Below are positions 1,045 to 55,380 of a stretch of DNA of 55,380 nt, one piece after another; within the stretch, counting starts at the first letter, position 1; the number at the start of each line of letters is the position of its first letter. A program made the translations under genes and the position numbers. The notes under the pieces are model-generated. The model ran no database searches, was not told the origin of the DNA, and was given only the letters and a program-made list of their open reading frames with translations. The stretch lies in assembly GCA_964394685.1 (NCBI GenBank), contig CAYMYO010000004.1, positions 9,063 to 64,442 of the forward strand. The letters run 5' to 3'. The stretch is from an uncultured Gammaproteobacteria bacterium (GTDB lineage Bacteria > Patescibacteriota > Microgenomatia > UBA10105 > UBA927).

Positions 1045-2388
1045 ATGCAAAATCCAAAAGTGCCTCCGCACGATGATAGTGCGGAAGAGTCAGTTCTTGG
1101 CGCCATCCTTATTGATCGGGATGCCATGATTGACGTGGTTGAATTTCTTCGGTCTGAACACTTCTACAAAGAAGCAAATGGTCATGTGTATATGGCCATG
1201 ATGAATTTGTATGAGCGTCATGACCCCATTGATGTTGTAACTGTTGTCAATGAGCTGAAAAAAATTGGATCCTTGACTGAAGCAGGAGGAGCATCGCGAA
1301 TCAATGAACTAGTCAATGTGGTTCCAACAGCAGCCAATGCCGAACAGTACGGACATATCATTAAAGAATACCATACAAAGCGGCTGCTTATTTCAGCAGC
1401 AGCTGAAATTAATACCCTTGCGTTTAAAGAATCGGGAGAGGTGCAGTCCATTCTTGATAGCGCTGAGCAGCGAATTTTTGCCATATCCCAGCATGCGATG
1501 AAACGGGATTTCATTCCCATCAAAGACGCACTCGCTGCGTCATTTGACCGCTTAGATGAGCTCCATAAACGAGCTGGGGGACTTCGGGGAGTTGCCACCG
1601 GTTTTCATGATTTGGATATGAAGCTTGCCGGCATGCAGGATTCAAACCTTATCATCCTCGCTGCCCGTCCGGGAACAGGGAAAACCGCAATGATTCTCAA
1701 TATTGCCCAGTATGTAGCTGTTCACGACAAAGTTCCTGTTGGGATATTTTCTCTTGAAATGAGCAAAGAAGAATTGGTGGATCGGCTTTTGGTTGCGCAA
1801 GCGGATATCGACGCGTGGAAACTGAAAACCGGAAAGCTTTCTGATGATGATTTTACGAAACTTTCTGATGCAATGGGTCAACTTGCCGAGGCGCCTCTTT
1901 TTATTGACGATACGCCGGGACTATCCATTCTAGAGATGCGGACAAAAGCACGAAGATTGCAAATGGAATACGGAGTAAAACTCATGGTCGTTGATTACTT
2001 GCAGCTTGCTGATTCTGGGAGACGGTATGATAATCGTGTTCAGGAAGTGTCTGTTATTTCGCAAAGTTTGAAAAATCTTGCGCGTGAACTTAATGTTCCG
2101 GTTCTTGCCTGTTCACAACTTTCCCGTGCTGTTGAAAGCAGGGGAACCAGAGTGCCGGAATTGTCAGATCTTCGGGAATCAGGGTCCATTGAACAAGATG
2201 CCGATGTCGTTATGTTTCTCTATCGCGAAGAAGCGGATATGACACAGTGGGGCGAACAAATTCCGACAAAACTGCGGATTGCAAAACATAGAAACGGCCC
2301 CTTAGGGGAAATAGACATGGTCTTCCGCGGCGACCGCATTCGTTTTTACGGGGTAGAACACAAGCGTGACGAAACTCCGGCAGGATGA
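1045..2388 (+). CDS. dnaB: Replicative DNA helicase DnaB
   Basis: PPHDDSAEESVLG N-terminus, Walker A AARPGTGKT, VVDYLQL, SQLSR, LRESGSIEQDAD, AKHRNGP. Confidence 0.98.
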   Translation: MQNPKVPPHDDSAEESVLGAILIDRDAMIDVVEFLRSEHFYKEANGHVYMAMMNLYERHDPIDVVTVVNELKKIGSLTEAGGASRINELVNVVPTAANAEQYGHIIKEYHTKRLLISAAAEINTLAFKESGEVQSILDSAEQRIFAISQHAMKRDFIPIKDALAASFDRLDELHKRAGGLRGVATGFHDLDMKLAGMQDSNLIILAARPGTGKTAMILNIAQYVAVHDKVPVGIFSLEMSKEELVDRLLVAQADIDAWKLKTGKLSDDDFTKLSDAMGQLAEAPLFIDDTPGLSILEMRTKARRLQMEYGVKLMVVDYLQLADSGRRYDNRVQEVSVISQSLKNLARELNVPVLACSQLSRAVESRGTRVPELSDLRESGSIEQDADVVMFLYREEADMTQWGEQIPTKLRIAKHRNGPLGEIDMVFRGDRIRFYGVEHKRDETPAG

Positions 2389-2394
2389 TAAAAT
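2386..2394 (+). promoter_or_regulatory. Extended -10 promoter candidate for the nested tRNA locus
   Basis: TGa-TAAAAT ending 9 nt before the outer tRNA 5' end. Confidence 0.5.
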
Positions 2395-2436: not shown

Positions 2437-2550
2437 CCTGCCCGAAATGCCAAAGTGTTGGAATTGGTAGACAAGCAAGTCTCAAAAACTTGTGGAGATA
2501 ACACTCCGTGAGGGTCCGAGTCCCTCCTTTGGCACATCTTTGCAGGCGGG
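2437..2550 (+). mobile_element. 114-bp insert bounded by CCTGCCCG and GCAGGCGGG, carrying a tRNA-Leu gene
   Basis: Ends identical to those of the 21-bp element at 54813-54833; removal restores the host tRNA with no target duplication; mobility is inferred. Confidence 0.7.
2449..2534 (+). tRNA. Inner (nested) tRNA-Leu(CAA), intact, 86 nt, CCA not encoded
   Basis: Acceptor GCCAAAG/CTTTGGC, D stem TTG/CAA, anticodon stem CAAGT/ACTTG, loop CTCAAAA, variable stem GGAG/CTCC, T stem GAGGG/CCCTC, discriminator A. Confidence 0.93.
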
Positions 2551-2659: not shown

Positions 2660-4093
2660 ATGAAATTTTATACGACGACGAAAGATATAACTTCACTTTC
2701 CGCTGATGCGGTGGTGGTTTTTGTGTATCAGGACGAAAAAGAACCGGAGTATATAAAACAATTTCACGTACAAGAAGAAGGGTTTACTGCTAAATTAGGA
2801 AATATTTTTGTTATTCAGACGCAGGGGAAATTAGCATATAAAAAAATATTTGTTGTGGGACTCGGAAAAGATAAAGAGCTTTCAGCGCATGATTGGCAAT
2901 ATGTTTATGCATCGATCGCAAGACAAGCAAAATTAAGTAAAGTTGCCACCCTCGTTGTTCCAACAAGCGATGTCTATAACGCTGTTGTAGGATTGGGGCT
3001 TGGTTCCTATAGTTTTTTAGTTCATAAAAACAAAAAAGTACAAAAAGAAGAACATGAAATAGAAAAAGTGACATTTGTTGGAGATGCAATAATTCAAAAG
3101 GATATCGTGAGTGGTGTTATTGCAGTTGATGCTACAAATTTTGCAAGGGATTTGGTTAATGAGCCGCCGTCTGTGACAACGCCAACGTATTTAAGTAGAG
3201 TAGCGGAAAAGTTGGCGGGGATATCTGTAAAAGTTTTTGAGAAAAAAGAAATGAAAAAACTCGGCATGAATGGACTTTTGGCTATTGCTCAAGGATCCCA
3301 TGAAGAACCGAAATTTATTAAGCTTACGTATAATGGTGGTGGGAAGAAAACGATAACCCTTGTGGGTAAAGGAATTACGTATGATTCCGGCGGGTTGTCA
3401 TTAAAGCCGCAATCGGGACTGGAAACCATGAAATGCGATATGGCAGGGGCAGCAGCAATTTTGGGAGTGTTTCATGCGCTTCAAAAAACAAAACCAAACA
3501 TAAACGTCATTGGTTTGATTGCCTCATGTGAGAATATGCCGGGAGGGGGAGCGATTAAACCAGGAGATGTCGTGCGTGCCATGAACGGGAAAACAATTGA
3601 AATTGTCAATATTGATGCAGAGGGACGTATTGTTCTTGCTGATGCCTTGTCGTATGCAGAAAAATTCGTGAAATCAGATTTCATTATTGATTTAGCAACG
3701 CTCACTGGCGCTTGTGTGGTTGCGCTTGGAGAAGACATAGCAGGACTGTTTACTGATGATGAGAAACTAGCTGGTAGTTTGATCGGATCAGCAACACATG
3801 TTGGCGAAAAAATGTGGAGAATGCCTATTGCAAAGGAATATGAAGAACAACTGAAAAGTGAAATAGCCGATGTACGGAATGTTTCAAAGACGAAATACGG
3901 CGGAGCAATCAACGGTGCGTTGTTTTTGAAAGAATTTGCTCCGAAAAACTCTCCTTGGGCGCATATCGATATTGCCGGCCCCGCGTTTGCTGAAAAAGAT
4001 ATGACACTCACGCCGTATGGTGGCACAGGATTTGGTGTTCGTACGCTACTTTCATTTATCTTAGAAGCAGCAGAAGGAAAAAGAGGACGGTGA
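2660..4093 (+). CDS. pepA: Leucyl aminopeptidase (M17)
   Basis: GKGITYDSGG, MKCDMAGAA, NIDAEGRIVLAD (NTDAEGR variant), ATLTGA, HIDIAG. Confidence 0.95.
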   Translation: MKFYTTTKDITSLSADAVVVFVYQDEKEPEYIKQFHVQEEGFTAKLGNIFVIQTQGKLAYKKIFVVGLGKDKELSAHDWQYVYASIARQAKLSKVATLVVPTSDVYNAVVGLGLGSYSFLVHKNKKVQKEEHEIEKVTFVGDAIIQKDIVSGVIAVDATNFARDLVNEPPSVTTPTYLSRVAEKLAGISVKVFEKKEMKKLGMNGLLAIAQGSHEEPKFIKLTYNGGGKKTITLVGKGITYDSGGLSLKPQSGLETMKCDMAGAAAILGVFHALQKTKPNINVIGLIASCENMPGGGAIKPGDVVRAMNGKTIEIVNIDAEGRIVLADALSYAEKFVKSDFIIDLATLTGACVVALGEDIAGLFTDDEKLAGSLIGSATHVGEKMWRMPIAKEYEEQLKSEIADVRNVSKTKYGGAINGALFLKEFAPKNSPWAHIDIAGPAFAEKDMTLTPYGGTGFGVRTLLSFILEAAEGKRGR

Positions 4094-29209: not shown

Positions 29210-29779
29210 ATGAGAAAAATAACTTTTCGCAAAGCCTGCCTGCCGGCGAGGCAGGGATTTACATTAGTAGAGCTTCTTATCGTTATCGCCTTGTTGGGAG
29301 CTTTGGCCATTGGTCTTATTGGAGCACTTGACCCATTTGAACAGCTCAAAAAAGGAACGGATACGGGAACACGGGATTTGGTAAACCAAGTCCAGACAGC
29401 AGTGCTACGGTATTATGCAACAACCAACAAAATGCCGTGGACAGATCAATCGACAGCGTTTAGTGCGACACTTCTTGACGCCGCAAATATGAATACAGCG
29501 ATCTCTTCTATGGCAGCAGCAGGAGAGATGAAATCGAATTTTAGTGTAATTTATAAAAATCAATTAGATAAAGTCTGGGTGACGTATGTACCTTCATCTC
29601 CAACAACATCTGTTGAAGTACGGGTATGTTATCAACCGGCCTCAAAATCATTTCAAGTTGATCCTGCAACGAAATATTTAAATGACCATACTGGAATTGA
29701 AAATACAACTAAAACAGGGGCAACAGCATGTAAGAGTAGTGATACAACAGGTGTTAATTGTGATTGGTGTGTTCAATAA
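29210..29779 (+). CDS. Type IV pilin, probable major pilin
   Basis: G|FTLVELL class III signal; dedicated promoter and SD; Ser/Thr-rich with C-terminal Cys residues. Confidence 0.9.
   Translation: MRKITFRKACLPARQGFTLVELLIVIALLGALAIGLIGALDPFEQLKKGTDTGTRDLVNQVQTAVLRYYATTNKMPWTDQSTAFSATLLDAANMNTAISSMAAAGEMKSNFSVIYKNQLDKVWVTYVPSSPTTSVEVRVCYQPASKSFQVDPATKYLNDHTGIENTTKTGATACKSSDTTGVNCDWCVQ
29235..29255. repeat. 21-bp mini-palindrome CCTGCCTGCCGGCGAGGCAGG in a prepilin leader
   Basis: Removal gives MRKITFRKG|FTL; identical to 36832-36852. Confidence 0.9.
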
Positions 29780-35956: not shown

Positions 35957-36375
35957 AAAAAACATGCCTGCCTGCCGGCAGGCAGGCTTTCTCTCTTATC
36001 GAATTACTTGTTGTGATTGCGCTTATTGGTATTTTGGTTGCTATCGCAACGGTTTCCTACACTACTATCCAAAAAAGGTCTCGTGATAGCAGGCGGGTCA
36101 CTGAACTGAAAGCGGTTCAGCAAGCGATGGAACAATATTATTCAAATACGCAATCATCATATCCAGGGAGTTGTTCCGGATTGGGTATCACCTATTTACC
36201 TAATGGTATGCCATCAGATCCTCAGACAGGCGTTCGTTATGATGATGCATCTCTATCGAGTTGTTCCTCAACGTCCTATTGTTTTTGTGTTTCTATGGAG
36301 GTCGGAAGCGGCAATGCGACCACTAATTGTTCAGGAACAGCCGGAGCGTTCTATTGTATTAGAAATGTTCAATGA
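35953..36375 (+). CDS. Type IV pilin / GspG-like
   Basis: A|FSLIELL, RDSRR, YP...PSDP. Confidence 0.88.
   Translation: MKKTCLPAGRQAFSLIELLVVIALIGILVAIATVSYTTIQKRSRDSRRVTELKAVQQAMEQYYSNTQSSYPGSCSGLGITYLPNGMPSDPQTGVRYDDASLSSCSSTSYCFCVSMEVGSGNATTNCSGTAGAFYCIRNVQ
35967..35986. repeat. 20-bp perfect palindrome CCTGCCTGCCGGCAGGCAGG in a prepilin leader
   Basis: Encodes part of CLPAGRQ; identical to 44694-44713. Confidence 0.9.
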
Positions 36376-36388
36376 AGAAAGGAAAAAT

Positions 36389-36829
36389 ATGAAAAAAGCC
36401 ATGCCTGCCGGCAGGCAGGGTTTTACACTTATTGAAATTCTTATCTCAATAGCTATTATTGCGGTATTAACTGCTCTTGGTATTGTTTCCTATGTGAGTA
36501 TTAACAAAAATGCACGTGATGCAAAACGTCGGGGAGATATCGAACAAATTCGATCAGCACTTGAATTGTACAGGTCAGATAATGGGTTTTATCCGGCAGT
36601 GGGTTCACTTGGTTGGGTTGATGTAAGTGAATTATCCATAGCTTTGGTTGATACCTATTTTCCTAGTATCCCATCAGATCCACAAAATACGTCATATCGG
36701 TATAAAGGAACGAACGACTATTACGGATATTGTTTGGAAGCGAAAGTCGAAAATGCAGATATAGCTGCTGATACATGCGGATCAATTGAAACAGGTGAGG
36801 GTTATAATTATGGAACGAAGAACCCGTAA
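36389..36829 (+). CDS. GspG-like type IV pilin
   Basis: Start moved to ATG 36389 after GAAAGGA; G|FTLIEIL, RDAKRRGDI...ALELYRSDNG.YP, PSDP. Confidence 0.88.
   Translation: MKKAMPAGRQGFTLIEILISIAIIAVLTALGIVSYVSINKNARDAKRRGDIEQIRSALELYRSDNGFYPAVGSLGWVDVSELSIALVDTYFPSIPSDPQNTSYRYKGTNDYYGYCLEAKVENADIAADTCGSIETGEGYNYGTKNP
36399..36419. repeat. 21-bp mini-palindrome CCATGCCTGCCGGCAGGCAGG in a prepilin leader
   Basis: Removal gives MKKG|FTL; identical to 37758-37778. Confidence 0.9.
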
Positions 36830-37313
36830 AGCCTGCCTGCCGGCGAGGCAGGCCTTCACGTTTATTGAACTGATTATTGTTATTGCGATTATTTTGGTTA
36901 TATCGCTTGGAGTTATTGTTAATTACAACTCGTATACAGATCGCGAACGTGTTCGTCAATCAGGACTCACCATTAAATCAGATATGAGACTTGTTGCTTC
37001 AAAAGTTAATTCTGGAGTGAAATCTACCACATGTGCAACGCTTGTTAGCTACGATGTTACGTTTACTACAATTTGTTCTGACGGAATTAGATCGTGTTAC
37101 ACTATTACTCCTCGTTGTTCAAATGGGCTCGGTGAGGAAGTAACAGTGTATATTCCAAAAGAAGTCCATTTTCAATCTGCTGATCAAACAATTCGATTTT
37201 TACCCTTATCTCTTGGAACGAATTTAACAACAGATGCTGTCATTACTCTTGGTGGCTATTCGGCAGTATATACCATTAAAATTAGTCCATCTGGAATTAT
37301 TAGTGATTATTAA
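36810..37313 (+). CDS. Minor pilin (FimT/GspH-like)
   Basis: A|FTFIELI; start ATG at 36810. Confidence 0.82.
   Translation: MERRTRKACLPARQAFTFIELIIVIAIILVISLGVIVNYNSYTDRERVRQSGLTIKSDMRLVASKVNSGVKSTTCATLVSYDVTFTTICSDGIRSCYTITPRCSNGLGEEVTVYIPKEVHFQSADQTIRFLPLSLGTNLTTDAVITLGGYSAVYTIKISPSGIISDY
36832..36852. repeat. 21-bp mini-palindrome in a prepilin leader
   Basis: Removal gives MERRTRKA|FTF. Confidence 0.9.
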
Positions 37314-37747: not shown

Positions 37748-38347
37748 ATGAAAAGAGCCATGCCTGCCGGCAGGCAGGGTTTTACACTACTTGAGTTACT
37801 TGTCGCTTCAGGTGTTATTGCGTTTGTTTCCGTTATTATTACGCAAGTTCTTTTTTCAAGTATCCACTTAAACACAAAAACTGAGGTTATAAAGGAATTA
37901 AAACAAACGGGAGAAATGACGTTGGGGGCAATGAGTCGAATGATTCAAAACGCTGCTTCTGTAATGGTTTCTCAATGTAATCTAAGCACTGATGATCCCA
38001 AGCAAATAGTGCCAACTGTTGAAATTACAGCGTTAAACGGCGGAATTACCACTATTGAATGCATCGATGATGCTATAGCTGGTGTTACCAGAATTGCTTC
38101 GATGAGTGCCTCACGAATTGATCCGTTATATATAACCAATAGTAATGTTACGTTGATAGATAATACTGGTGCTAGCGGTTGTTCGAATCAACCATTGCAA
38201 TTTACGTGCGTTGGTGTTGGAGGAATACCAACCTCCCTTAGTGTACGATTTCGTCTTCGTCAAAAAAATCTTGCAGCAACATCGTATGAAAGCGCGTTTG
38301 AAACATTTCAAACAACAATTAGTGTTCGAAATTCCACAAATGAATAA
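37748..38347 (+). CDS. Minor pilin (PilW-like)
   Basis: G|FTLLELL; C-terminal FETFQTTISVRN. Confidence 0.82.
   Translation: MKRAMPAGRQGFTLLELLVASGVIAFVSVIITQVLFSSIHLNTKTEVIKELKQTGEMTLGAMSRMIQNAASVMVSQCNLSTDDPKQIVPTVEITALNGGITTIECIDDAIAGVTRIASMSASRIDPLYITNSNVTLIDNTGASGCSNQPLQFTCVGVGGIPTSLSVRFRLRQKNLAATSYESAFETFQTTISVRNSTNE
37758..37778. repeat. 21-bp mini-palindrome in a prepilin leader
   Basis: Removal gives MKRG|FTL. Confidence 0.9.
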
Positions 38348-44049: not shown

Positions 44050-46113
44050 TTAATCCTGTGAAACATTTTCTATTTTACTCTCATTTAAGCGCTCTCTCAA
44101 GAGGGGAAAAGCATTAAACGTAGGATCAATGCATGTTAACTTCGAAACTGCGTCTTTTGTTTGAGAAACAAGAGTGGCATCTGATAACGATCCAAGAACA
44201 AGTGTCGGGATTCCGTGTTGGCGGCTGCCAAAGACATCTCCCTGACCTCGAAGTTTGAGATCATATTCAGCAAGTTCTGTACCGTTATGCATTGTTTCCA
44301 GAGCTTTTAAACGCGTCATTGTATCCGGATTGGTATTATCTGAAAAGAGAAGACAATAGGATTGTTTGTCACTGCGTCCTACCCGTCCGCGGAGCTGATG
44401 AAGTTGCGCAAGGCCAAACCGATCAGAGCCTTCAACGAGCATAATGGTAGCATTGGGAATATCAATTCCTACTTCAACAACAGGAGTCGCCACTAATATA
44501 TCAATGTCTTTATTTCGAAATGCATCAAGAATACTCGATTTTTCTTTTGTTTTTAGTTTGCCATGCAGAAGTCCGAGTTTGAGATTTGGAAAGACAGAGG
44601 TAGATAATCTCGTAAATTCAGTCGTGGCGGCTTTGATGGTTTTCATGGATTCCGATTCCTCGATAAACGGACAAATAATAAAACACTGTGAACCCTGCCT
44701 GCCGGCAGGCAGGTGTGACTCTTTTATTTCTTTTTTTATCCATGCGTAGGCATCATCACGTTTTTCTGGGGGAACCACCCAGGTTTTAATGTTTTGTCTT
44801 CCTTTAGGCATTTCAGTGAGTTGAGACAGGTCGAGATTGCCGTAGAGCGTAAGAGCAAGGGTTCTGGGGATCGGAGTAGCGGTCATGGTAAGGAGATGTG
44901 GTGTGGTTGTCCCCTTCACTTTTGTGCGAATCAGGTTTCGTTGAAATACGCCAAATCGTTGTTGTTCATCAATAACGACAAGTCCGACGTTTTGAAATTC
45001 AATTTTGTTTTCTAATAACGCATGCGTGCCGACGAGTATTTTGTATTTTGTATCTTGTCTTTTGTATTTACCTCCAGTGATCAGGCCGACACTAATGCCA
45101 AACGGTTCGAGGAGTTGTTTAATGGTATTGAAATGTTGTTCAGCAAGGATTTGGGTCGGTGCCATGAGGATGGACTGGAGATGATTTTTTGCAGTAATAT
45201 ACATGGCTATTGCCGCAACCACGGTTTTTCCGCTCCCGACATCTCCCTCAAGAAGCCGATTCATAGGAGTTGTTGATGCAATATCCGTTTGAATATCTTT
45301 AAACGCTTGCAATTGACTACTCGTGAGAGTAAATGGAAGTTTTGTGATAAATGAATTTATTTCTTGAGAAGAAGTAGTGAGTGAGGTCGCATGCTTTGTT
45401 TCTTTCCACAATCGTTTTTGCTCAAAGGACATACATTGCATAAGAAGCAGTTCGTCAAACGCGAGCCTTCGCCTGGCTTCAACTCCAATTGCAATTGTTT
45501 TTGGAAAATGCACATCATGAAGTGCTTCCTGAATGTGCGGGAGCGTATATGTTATCCGTATGTTCTCGGGTATGTATTCTTCAATGAGCGTTGGTACTTC
45601 GGTTAACAGATAATAGATTCGTGATCGTAACCATTTTGACGTAATACCGGTTGTTTCTGAATAGACTGGAACCACTCGACCAGTGTGAAGGAATGGTTTG
45701 CCAGGAGTTGCAAGTTCATAATCCGGAGATTCTAACACGAGTTTGTTTCCGAAAAAACCAACGGTTCCTGAAGCAGCGAGTATATCGCCTGCCTGGATGA
45801 TTTTCGGTAAATACAATTGGTTAAACCATATAATTGTCGCAATTCCTGTAGAATCCTCGACACGACATTCCTGAATTTTCTTTCCTGTTTTGGTAAAGAT
45901 GTTTTTGATACTTAATACCGTCCCATGGATACTGATGACCGTCCCTGGATGCAGTGATCGAATGGAAGTAACGAGCGAAAAATCGTTGTAGCGGAAAGGG
46001 GCGTAAAAAAGAAGATCCCGTACCGTATGAATTCCGAGTCGTTCCAACTTACCAGCGATCGATGGACCCACACGGGGGACGTATTGAATAGAAGAGCTCA
46101 GTCGTAAGGTCAT
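44050..46113 (-). CDS. recG: ATP-dependent DNA helicase RecG
   Basis: RRRLAFDE, EGDVGSGKT, DEQQRFG, MTATPIPRT, QLHQLRGRVGR, DLKLRGQG. Confidence 0.96.
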   Translation of the reverse strand: MTLRLSSSIQYVPRVGPSIAGKLERLGIHTVRDLLFYAPFRYNDFSLVTSIRSLHPGTVISIHGTVLSIKNIFTKTGKKIQECRVEDSTGIATIIWFNQLYLPKIIQAGDILAASGTVGFFGNKLVLESPDYELATPGKPFLHTGRVVPVYSETTGITSKWLRSRIYYLLTEVPTLIEEYIPENIRITYTLPHIQEALHDVHFPKTIAIGVEARRRLAFDELLLMQCMSFEQKRLWKETKHATSLTTSSQEINSFITKLPFTLTSSQLQAFKDIQTDIASTTPMNRLLEGDVGSGKTVVAAIAMYITAKNHLQSILMAPTQILAEQHFNTIKQLLEPFGISVGLITGGKYKRQDTKYKILVGTHALLENKIEFQNVGLVVIDEQQRFGVFQRNLIRTKVKGTTTPHLLTMTATPIPRTLALTLYGNLDLSQLTEMPKGRQNIKTWVVPPEKRDDAYAWIKKEIKESHLPAGRQGSQCFIICPFIEESESMKTIKAATTEFTRLSTSVFPNLKLGLLHGKLKTKEKSSILDAFRNKDIDILVATPVVEVGIDIPNATIMLVEGSDRFGLAQLHQLRGRVGRSDKQSYCLLFSDNTNPDTMTRLKALETMHNGTELAEYDLKLRGQGDVFGSRQHGIPTLVLGSLSDATLVSQTKDAVSKLTCIDPTFNAFPLLRERLNESKIENVSQD
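44694..44713. repeat. 20-bp palindrome CCTGCCTGCCGGCAGGCAGG inside recG
   Basis: Encodes part of HLPAGRQG, just before the SQCFIICP strand. Confidence 0.9.
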
Positions 46114-54597: not shown

Positions 54598-55380
54598 TTA
54601 GAATTGTTTTAAAAATCGTACATCATTACTATAAAGCAACCGAATATCATCAATATTTGTATTGGATTTCATCATGGATGTCCGTTCCACTCCCCAACCA
54701 ATAGCAAATCCGCTGTATTTACTTGGATCAACGCCGCCATTTTGAAGTACGACCGGATGGATCATGCCGGAACCGGCAAGTTCGAGCCATCCTTCTTTAC
54801 ACAAACGGCAACCCTGCCCGTCCGGCAGGCGGGCCTTACCACCGCACACGCCACAGGAGATATCTACCTCAAATGATGGTTCAGTAAATTGAAAATGAAA
54901 TGGTCGTAGACGGAATTTTCTTTCGGATCCAAAGTATTGTTTGACAAAATAATCAATAAACCCTTTAAGGTGGCCGATTGAGACATTACGGTCGATATAC
55001 ATTCCTTCAAATTGATGAAACATTGGTGTATGCGATATATCGATTTGTCTTCGGTAGCATTTAGCAATGTTTATCATGCGTATTGGCAGCATTCCTTTTT
55101 CCATTTCCCGTACTTGTCCGTTACTTGTATGTGGGGTTAATACGATTTTTTGTTTTTTATAATCGCTTTCTGGTTGTCCAGGATATTTGATGTAGAATGT
55201 CTCCCATTCGTCGCTTGCTGGATGACTGTGCGGCATATTGAGTGATTCAAACGGATACCAATCCCAATCAACTTCCGGATGTCGAACACGGGTAAAACCT
55301 ATTTTATTGAATATGGTTGTTATTTCTTCAATTGCTTGGGTGACAATATGAAGATGTCCTTGCGGAGGAAGATCTCCGGG
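54598..55380 (-). CDS. pheS: Phenylalanyl-tRNA synthetase alpha subunit (5' part outside window)
   Basis: Frame open to the window edge (GHLHIVT...LNMPHSHPA); HTPMFHQFEG, FQFTEPS, ELAGSG, FAIGWGVER. Confidence 0.96.
   Translation of the reverse strand, partial: PGDLPPQGHLHIVTQAIEEITTIFNKIGFTRVRHPEVDWDWYPFESLNMPHSHPASDEWETFYIKYPGQPESDYKKQKIVLTPHTSNGQVREMEKGMLPIRMINIAKCYRRQIDISHTPMFHQFEGMYIDRNVSIGHLKGFIDYFVKQYFGSERKFRLRPFHFQFTEPSFEVDISCGVCGGKARLPDGQGCRLCKEGWLELAGSGMIHPVVLQNGGVDPSKYSGFAIGWGVERTSMMKSNTNIDDIRLLYSNDVRFLKQF
54813..54833. repeat. 21-bp mini-palindrome CCTGCCCGTCCGGCAGGCGGG inserted in frame in pheS
   Basis: Removal converts CGGKARLPDGQGCRLC into the usual CGGKGCRLC. Confidence 0.9.

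Follow-up and report, generated by a model that had tools for sequence, protein, structure and literature searches.

The 55,380-nucleotide stretch of DNA analysed here (the window) contains a gene for a leucine transfer RNA (tRNA), tRNA-Leu(CAA), which is split by a 114-bp insert carrying a second, complete tRNA-Leu(CAA) gene. The window corresponds to C4:9063-64442 of a genome that we call G000 (1.0 Mb, 40% GC, 25 contigs). We consider that the insert, at positions 2437-2550, is probably a cargo-carrying member of a non-autonomous, GC-rich foldback family, similar to repetitive extragenic palindromes (REPs) and miniature inverted-repeat transposable elements (MITEs), whose tRNA replaces the cognate gene that it disrupts. 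Comparison with an empty allele shows that a chromosomal tRNA-Leu(CAA), intact until then, received the element as DNA in its anticodon loop; the insertion was precise and duplicated no target bases. The strongest regularity, which goes beyond the original prediction made from the letters of the window, is that the cargo of such elements is a tRNA (62 of 65 elements) and that the host gene is cognate and co-oriented with it (33 of 35 cases).

Structure of the insert and its counterpart in pheS

All features of the Leu locus described here lie on the forward strand. The insert starts with the left end CCTGCCCG (2437-2444), an 8-mer that bounds all members of the family, and continues with a spacer AAAT (2445-2448), which forms the leader of the cargo tRNA. 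The complete tRNA-Leu(CAA) occupies 2449-2534 (found by ARAGORN and matching Rfam RF00005 with 51.3 bits), and is followed by a second spacer, the trailer CATCTTT (2535-2541), and by the right end GCAGGCGGG (2542-2550). The insert encodes no open reading frame (ORF). It divides the outer, or host, tRNA-Leu(CAA) (2404-2603) in its anticodon loop, between residues 32 and 33, such that the 5' half (2404-2436, nt 1-33) runs through loop position 32 and the 3' half (2551-2603) runs from U33 to the discriminator. Deletion of 2437-2550 in silico joins the two halves into a clean gene, called by ARAGORN as tRNA-Leu(caa), with a perfect cloverleaf, a variable arm reading AUGACUAUAAAAAGUCAU, and no target duplication. 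The inner tRNA is the sole intact gene for its anticodon in G000.

The original prediction held that the insert has the same ends as a 21-bp element in pheS, and this is borne out by the sequence. The element in pheS, CCTGCCCG-TCCG-GCAGGCGGG, lies at 54813-54833 of the forward strand, with pheS itself on the minus strand. It is in frame, and adds exactly 7 residues (ARLPDGQ) in the zinc-knuckle loop when compared with the solved PheS structures 4p71 and 2rhq. As had also been noticed, the base preceding the insertion is a C in both cases and both can be removed cleanly.

A second cargo-bearing copy

G000 contains a second copy with cargo, 106 bp long (C11:36999-37104), in which one tRNA-Thr(TGT) is lodged within another, at the anticodon loop. 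Three more family members, of 36, 12 and 20 bp, also split this outer gene, and removing all four insertions gives a perfect cloverleaf. The cargo tRNA-Thr(TGT) is the only gene for its anticodon in the genome. A brute-force test of all 45 tRNAs of G000 revealed no nested tRNA with other ends, and returned only the two known cases together with artefacts from adjacent tRNAs. The 12-bp member, CCTGCCGGCAGG (C11:37121-37132), lies in the D loop of the outer gene between 4-bp TAGA repeats; judged against the empty site in five relatives, it is the sole insertion with a flanking direct repeat.

We note that 10 of the 45 tRNAs of G000, including both Leu(CAA) copies, have C at T-loop position 55, where U is near-universal (they read TCC, not TTC), a feature shared by the native Thr(TGT) genes of the genus. 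This suggests that the formation of pseudouridine-55 may be relaxed or absent.

Empty and filled sites

Both cargo loci have empty sites. At the Thr locus, five genomes of the same genus contain an uninterrupted tRNA-Thr(TGT) from which all four insertions are absent. These plain genes are 91-92% identical to the outer gene of G000 and only 67-68% identical to the inner one, indicating that the outer gene is native and the inner one foreign.

The Leu locus lies between dnaB (1045-2388) and a gene for an M17 aminopeptidase (2660-4093), and genomes of the same genus have a plain tRNA-Leu(CAA) in the same position with the same flanks. A metagenome scan for the exact empty junction gave no match, owing to one stem substitution; a second scan found a contig (L326) whose dnaB region is 84% identical to that of G000 and adjoins an uninterrupted tRNA-Leu(CAA). 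This gene matches the outer gene of G000 at 33/33 and 57/58 nt, and its empty junction reads GTAGCTC.TCAAAAAG. The outer Leu gene is therefore a genuine native allele of the sub-lineage of G000, the empty site exists, and the insertion was precise. When empty and filled sequences are compared, insertion is exact and without target duplication at the Leu site, at three of the four sites in the Thr host, and in pheS.

The tRNA-Leu(CAA) at the dnaB locus is unusually diverse within a single family, with identities of 66-100% (L032-L042 and L326). In one genome (G009), the first 27 nt of the plain gene are common to the cargo of another (G008). The occurrence of at least two very different alleles at one locus is consistent with the outcome expected of serial or repeated replacement.

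It may be asked whether transposition took place at this locus at all, or whether G000 received the filled allele from a close relative by homologous recombination through the dnaB, pepA and tRNA flanks. The outer gene is almost identical to the allele of a related organism (L326), and bacteria of the candidate phyla radiation (CPR) are thought to take up DNA. However, recombination merely shifts the insertion event to the relative, and no filled allele with these flanks was found in another organism. Moreover, host anticodon stems differ among genomes that carry the same element type, which means that the elements were first inserted precisely, with no co-conversion of the flanking sequence. 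We regard acquisition by recombination as a somewhat unlikely account of the filled allele in G000.

Cargo-less members of the family

Members of the family form a size series: 21 bp (bare ends), 36-42 bp (ends plus a small hairpin), and 100-120 bp (ends, leader and trailer, and a complete tRNA). The ends, CCTGCCCG(CC)...(GG)CAGGCGGG, constitute an imperfect terminal inverted repeat of 10-11 bp, which folds as a 4-nt tail plus a hairpin; CCTGCCCGCC and the reverse complement of GGCAGGCGGG are identical at 8/10 positions, with the two mismatches swapped. The 36-40-bp members fold into four unpaired 5' nucleotides (CCTG) and a CCCGC...GCGGG hairpin, with z of -2.2 to -3.5. The left spacer of the Leu insert is of an AAAT/CAAT type; two other genomes (G303 and G008) have it in their Leu(CAA) elements, and it recurs in cargo-less members of 36 bp.

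Across G000, the left end CCTGCCCG occurs 23 times against 7.7 expected from composition, and the right end GCAGGCGGG 21 times against 1.5. Three copies of 21 bp and five of 36-40 bp (for example CCTGCCCGCAATGCTTCGCAAAGCGATGCAGGCGGG) have exact ends, and the closely related perfect palindrome CCTGCCTGCCGGCAGGCAGG is present in 15 copies. One element lies within another at C11:23398-23448. The short copies are mostly found in long ORFs, with lengths that keep the frame; 2 of the 8 exact-end short copies are in tRNA genes or their remnants, though tRNA genes make up only about 0.35% of the genome. No end pair up to 400 bp apart encloses an ORF in G000 that could represent an autonomous master copy (larger spacings and other genomes were not searched).

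Within the window, the six relatives that had been noticed were all located. They are 21-bp palindromes at 29235-29255 and 36832-36852 (both CCTGCCTGCCGGCGAGGCAGG) and at 36399-36419 and 37758-37778 (both CCATGCCTGCCGGCAGGCAGG), and 20-bp perfect palindromes at 35967-35986 (CCTGCCTGCCGGCAGGCAGG) and at 44694-44713, the last within an ORF of 689 amino acids. They have in common a core TGCCTGCCGGC, which gives 10 matches against 0.02 expected; for pairs of ends at short spacing in the window, shuffling gives an expectation of 0.00. The statement that the window encodes no transposase holds for the families screened, Y1/HUH and rve (PF01797 and rve profiles; other transposase families were not screened).

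Several further short copies of G000 were observed. Upstream of the window, a probable single-stranded DNA-binding protein (ending DDIPF) has a 36-bp member (C4:150-185) in frame in its C-terminal tail, and a 20-bp palindrome at C4:364-383 is read through as LPAGRQA in the N-terminal part of ribosomal protein S18. Approximately 1.7 kb before the start of the window, a tRNA-His(GTG) has its T arm split by another 20-bp palindrome (C4:7362-7381). ARAGORN mis-calls this gene by taking palindrome bases as the acceptor, and removing the 20 bp gives a proper tRNA-His; a second, very different and intact tRNA-His(GTG) at C7:42683-42755 is a replacement that is not nested. At C11:35700-35800, beside a tRNA-Thr(GGT), a 40-bp member lies in the T loop (TTC|AATT) of an apparent tRNA 3' fragment, perhaps all that is left of a gene replaced earlier.

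Occurrence in related genomes

We then surveyed 401 genomes of the same class, requiring exact ends, a choice that biases the survey towards young insertions. Ends 80-110 nt apart were found in 48/401 genomes, and short elements (0-30 nt between the ends) in 153/401, whereas a reversed-pattern control gave 0 for both. The interiors of the short elements are very diverse and always fold as hairpins. Short copies are present in 38/44 (86%) of the genomes with tRNA cargo and in 115/357 (32%) of the others (odds ratio 13, p 4e-12).

The proposal of a non-autonomous hairpin family whose centre can hold approximately 90-100 bp of cargo is thus supported by one further copy in G000 and about 60 in its relatives. 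None of the three outcomes that would have spoken against the original prediction (end matches at chance frequency, no second cargo-bearing copy, no empty site at the tRNA) was observed. The alternative is that there is no family, and that GC-rich hairpins, for instance terminator-like or other structural motifs, share these ends by coincidence. Short GC-rich palindromes can indeed converge, and the pattern arises by chance in high-GC genomes. However, the expectation in the window is nil and the reversed-pattern control is empty, while the short and cargo-bearing forms strongly co-occur and chance matches never carry tRNAs: in high-GC genomes the figure is 0/76, and among the 120 matches listed from named genomes, almost all of them chance matches in high-GC genomes, only two, both from Saccharibacteria, were real. 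On these controls, coincidence is refuted. Among the matches listed from viral contigs, 0/80 contain a tRNA, giving no evidence for carriage by phages.

The 65 elements examined include the two from Saccharibacteria metagenome-assembled genomes. Their complete tRNAs represent 24 different anticodons, and the 35 cases in which the host could be compared are those where ARAGORN calls it across the junction. There are two exceptions to the cognate rule. In one (L200) the host is cognate with a 1-nt loop deletion; in the other (L183, G263:C37) a Val(CAC) cargo lies in the D loop of a host with anticodon CGT, whose acceptor stem (GGACTCG) is not Thr-like. This only possibly non-cognate case is either a dead host with a mutated anticodon or a genuine mis-insertion at a non-specific GGTAGA site. 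The junction is at the site of the cargo's anticodon in 48/62 elements, and in the remainder mostly in the D loop (after GGTAGA), with one in the T loop. No intergenic cargo copy occurs among the 62, and the asymmetric ends are oriented 31:31 with respect to the tRNA.

Within a cargo type, cargos are 0.73-0.88 identical and spacers are as diverged as hosts, while the 8+9-nt ends are exact. Selection must therefore act on the ends themselves, and, given that the same ends bound copies in ORFs, selection for mobility seems more plausible than selection for tRNA processing. Two other origins of the cargo were considered and rejected. It is not a fresh duplicate of the host, since cargo-host identity is only 0.60-0.82; and the cargo types are not recently spreading clones, since identity between cargos (0.73-0.88) is similar to that between hosts.

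Spacers and end orientation are shared by cargo type across families (Ala 6/6, Pro 4/4, Gly-TCC 4/4, Leu-CAA 3/3), which argues that elements are inherited as units. This bears on a two-step origin, in which a bare hairpin landed in the anticodon loop and later captured a tRNA, for example by repair of a break in the palindrome, so that the cargo form would be no mobile unit. The element-in-element nest of G000 demonstrates that the family can receive insertions, and the orientation of cargo relative to the asymmetric ends is random overall, both of which would fit. However, a bare element that broke a tRNA gene both essential and single-copy would kill the cell before any rescue, and capture does not account for the gene taken up being always the cognate one in the same orientation. 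Furthermore, in a three-level nest described below, an entire cargo element has entered a cargo tRNA that was functional. We consider a two-step origin unlikely.

Fate of the host genes

A perfect cloverleaf is still formed by 35/62 hosts. Many hosts, however, contain further, unrelated hairpin insertions, lack one half, or have damaged loops (in one case of 6 nt). In G000, the outer Thr gene has three substitutions and a 4-nt repeat, whereas the gene is otherwise 96-100% identical in the genus. In the three-level nest (L324, G338:C36:6693-6904, minus strand) a decayed tRNA-Thr host contains an element with Thr(CGT) cargo, and this cargo is in turn interrupted, at G35|T36, by another element with the opposite end orientation, whose Thr(CGT) is 70% identical to the first. 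Host decay and this nest together imply that hosts are dead genes, and that a later invader strikes the copy which is functional at that time.

In four hosts (L010, L020, L027 and L030) the other, unrelated hairpin insertions are 25-35 bp long and have different ends. Several micro-element families thus seem to target tRNA genes in this class.

The state of the hosts is also relevant to whether the insert is a tRNA-bearing intron. Under such a scheme the inner tRNA would be cut out by RNase P and RNase Z, the remainder trimmed and the halves ligated, to give two functional tRNA-Leu(CAA) molecules, with the conserved ends serving as splicing signals. The perfect cloverleaf of the outer gene, the anticodon loop being the usual place of tRNA introns, and the strict conservation of the ends all agree with this. 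Nevertheless, many hosts are clearly dead, and close relatives lack the insert. The splicing endonuclease (PF01974) is present in 0/44 cargo genomes, while four archaeal controls were detected, and an Rfam scan of positions 2300-2700 (E<=1) gives only the inner tRNA and no intron family. After cleavage by RNase P and RNase Z the halves would still bear 12 and 16 extra nt, and the ends are oriented at random (31:31) relative to transcription. Finally, those copies that lie within ORFs keep the frame by their length and are translated, which means that the RNA retains them. Pairing of the bulge-helix-bulge (BHB) type at the junctions was looked for and dropped on inspection, the exon side not being conserved. 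An intron is very unlikely; decaying hosts and the missing splicing endonuclease point to insertion of DNA. For the same reasons, the RNA-level mechanism that had been offered as one option is disfavoured.

Insertion sites and possible targeting

The position of insertion is fixed for each tRNA type, across families and for opposite end orientations. Thr (NGT) genes are entered at G35|T36 or after GGTAGA, Ala (CGC) genes at A37|T38 in 5/6 cases, Pro genes after G36 (4/4), and Leu (CAA) genes after C32 (3/3), while in other Leu types the site is always in the D loop. We found no target motif in the flanks of 61 sites in either orientation, the maximum being 0.56 bit per position. Homing by homologous recombination via the host arms was rejected as the primary event, because the anticodon stems of the hosts vary between genomes, with compensatory pairs, as far as the edge of the loop.

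Selection certainly contributes to this pattern: an insertion can make good the loss and use the host's promoter only if it is cognate and co-oriented. If insertion were random and then filtered by selection, neutral copies should nevertheless be left between genes, of which there are none among the 62, and some form of targeting is therefore favoured. Targeting may possibly operate via homology between cargo and host at the three most conserved loop regions. We put forward, tentatively and with more doubt than confidence, that the tRNA cargo acts as an address label: the single-stranded element would pair with the cognate gene, and a HUH enzyme resembling the REP-associated tyrosine transposases (RAYTs), reading nothing but the hairpin ends, would insert it at a set point in the exposed loop.

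The candidate enzyme

G000 encodes a single PF01797 protein (C12:4763-5377), in which the HUH motif reads NHVHFLI and the Y motif reads RYIHQNP. Of the NCBIfam families, NF047646, REP-associated tyrosine transposase, matches it best, at 59 bits (cut-off 80), compared with 20 bits for IS200 TnpA. No rve transposase was matched in G000. Y1 genes occur in 41/44 (93%) of cargo genomes and 198/357 (55%) of the others (odds ratio 11, p 3e-7, kinship ignored), and in 118/153 genomes with short copies compared with 121/248 without (kinship again ignored). The control DDE family, rve, is found in 13/44 (30%) of cargo genomes and 24% (85/357) of the others (p 0.46).

A HUH/RAYT enzyme encoded elsewhere was part of the original prediction. 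The enrichment of Y1 genes, set against the negative control, supports this part, in a correlative manner that falls short of proof. Judging from architecture and co-occurrence, a RAYT-like HUH (Y1) enzyme is the most likely mobiliser.

A palindrome of a different kind, TCAAGGCC(C)GGCCTTGA (C12:4735-4990), follows the RAYT-like gene and also sits in frame inside it; it may be the RAYT's own REP family. A similar palindrome, TCGAGGCCGGGCCTTGGA, lies downstream of the plain tRNA-Leu in L326.

Proposed mechanism

The only promoter-like site at the Leu locus (2366-2394, forward strand; -35 GTGACG, 17 nt, TG-extended -10 TAAAAT, from a consensus scan only) is approximately 10 nt upstream of the outer tRNA, and there is none within the insert. 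The inner tRNA would thus have to be transcribed through the 5' half of the outer gene. We propose that a RAYT-like HUH (Y1) enzyme acts in trans on the single-stranded hairpin DNA. After insertion, a chimeric transcript would start at the promoter of the host gene, RNase P and RNase Z would free the inner tRNA, which would take over decoding, and the split outer gene would be dead and would then decay. Because the cargo makes up for the gene that is destroyed, the cell would tolerate an insertion even where the tRNA gene is essential and single-copy, and the element could then not be lost. It would act as a selfish tRNA-replacement cassette, whose cargo could be struck in turn by later invaders.

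Several points weigh against replacement by a mobile cassette. The plain tRNA-Leu(CAA) of relatives is 78-83% identical to the inner gene of G000 but only 67-75% to the outer, so that the genus must contain two or more allele types of tRNA-Leu(CAA). The mobility of the family is read from sequence comparison, and the expression and release of the inner tRNA are predicted. The model explains neither the constant site per tRNA type without a common target motif nor the route by which cargo is acquired. As regards the enzyme, the RAYT-like match of G000 scores below the NCBIfam cut-off, its gene is flanked by a palindrome that is not of this family, three cargo-bearing genomes (G137, G252 and G312) have no Y1 gene, and the co-occurrence tests treat genomes without phylogenetic correction.

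Comparison with known elements

REPs, and the REPINs related to them, reportedly have RAYTs of the HUH Y1 family as partners. Like REPs, the present elements are short imperfect palindromes with a conserved 4-nt tail at the foot of the hairpin, non-autonomous and in many copies; a RAYT-like gene is present (though below the cut-off), and Y1 genes are enriched in genomes that have the elements. REPs are extragenic and carry no cargo; their tail (in enterobacteria) is GTAG, and they are clustered near the RAYT gene that belongs to them. In contrast, the elements described here occur in ORFs and tRNA genes, can carry a tRNA, have a CCTG tail, and do not flank the RAYT-like gene of G000.

Mobile insertion cassettes (MICs) are non-autonomous elements bounded by inverted repeats, with passenger genes. 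The present family resembles MITEs and MICs in having terminal inverted repeats around a passenger, no transposase of its own, and a size series from bare to cargo-bearing. It differs in the lack of target-site duplication (except for the TAGA at the CCTGCCGGCAGG copy), in its length of approximately 105-120 bp with a tRNA as passenger, in that the target of the cargo form is the cognate tRNA gene (33/35 callable), and in that no master copy was found in G000 at up to 400 bp.

IS200/IS605 elements are moved by a HUH Y1 enzyme through a single-strand 'peel and paste' process, have two different subterminal hairpins, and insert 3' of a fixed tetra- or pentanucleotide. The absence of target duplication, the precise junctions, the hairpin-dependent ends and the Y1 family are common to both, but here there is one foldback and no common target motif.

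Some phages, integrative and conjugative elements and genomic islands use tRNA genes as integration sites. These elements, kilobases in length, have their own integrase, duplicate part of the tRNA as att, and carry a replacement 3' segment. The use of a conserved tRNA gene as a landing site, with the damage repaired by a carried copy, is the same. In our case, however, there is no integrase or ORF, and a complete tRNA is nested in the host loop, leaving the host dead; and because the full cargo tRNA is only 60-82% identical to the host, there is no duplicated att segment.

Palindromic elements are reported from Rickettsia, and GC clusters and double-hairpin elements are said to occur in mitochondria. 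These are likewise palindromic selfish DNA, found in frame in protein genes and in RNA genes of AT-rich small genomes. They have no sequence relationship to the present family, and we know of none with a tRNA gene or with cognate targeting.

Bacterial group I introns occur in anticodon loops, and transposing BHB introns reportedly exist in archaea of the Thermoproteales. Such introns are also intervening sequences in tRNA loops, sometimes several per gene, with a patchy distribution that suggests mobility. In the present case there is no EndA and no ribozyme match, the hosts decay and the orientation of the ends is random; for a group I intron, the 114-nt insert (of which the tRNA takes 86 nt) is too small. 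A full-text literature search found no description of this arrangement (subscription journals were outside its cover).

Implications

The palindromic mini-insertions of 20-42 bp in CPR genes and the tRNA-in-tRNA genes are apparently one family, without and with cargo. What is new is that identical ends and co-occurrence link the two forms, together with the quantified cognate rule, the empty sites at both cargo loci, and an association with HUH enzymes that has a control. The family accounts for unannotated tRNA halves and mis-called tRNAs in CPR genomes, and offers a mechanism for xenologous turnover of tRNA genes, as with the two tRNA-Leu(CAA) allele types that share a single locus in the genus.

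Should the link to RAYTs be borne out, REP-type elements would have a cargo-carrying relative, which would also be a tractable substrate in vitro, of 36 to 114 nt. If targeting is guided by the cargo, this would be a new principle of target choice. Should the tRNA indeed serve as an address label, the 105-120-bp cassettes would be the smallest known cargo-carrying, self-addressing gene-replacement elements, and tRNA genes would be turned over continually and horizontally across CPR bacteria, with the Russian-doll nests as a fossil record. The strategy, to break an essential single-copy gene while delivering its replacement, and so to be first tolerated and then indispensable, is one of which we know no description for bacterial mobile DNA.

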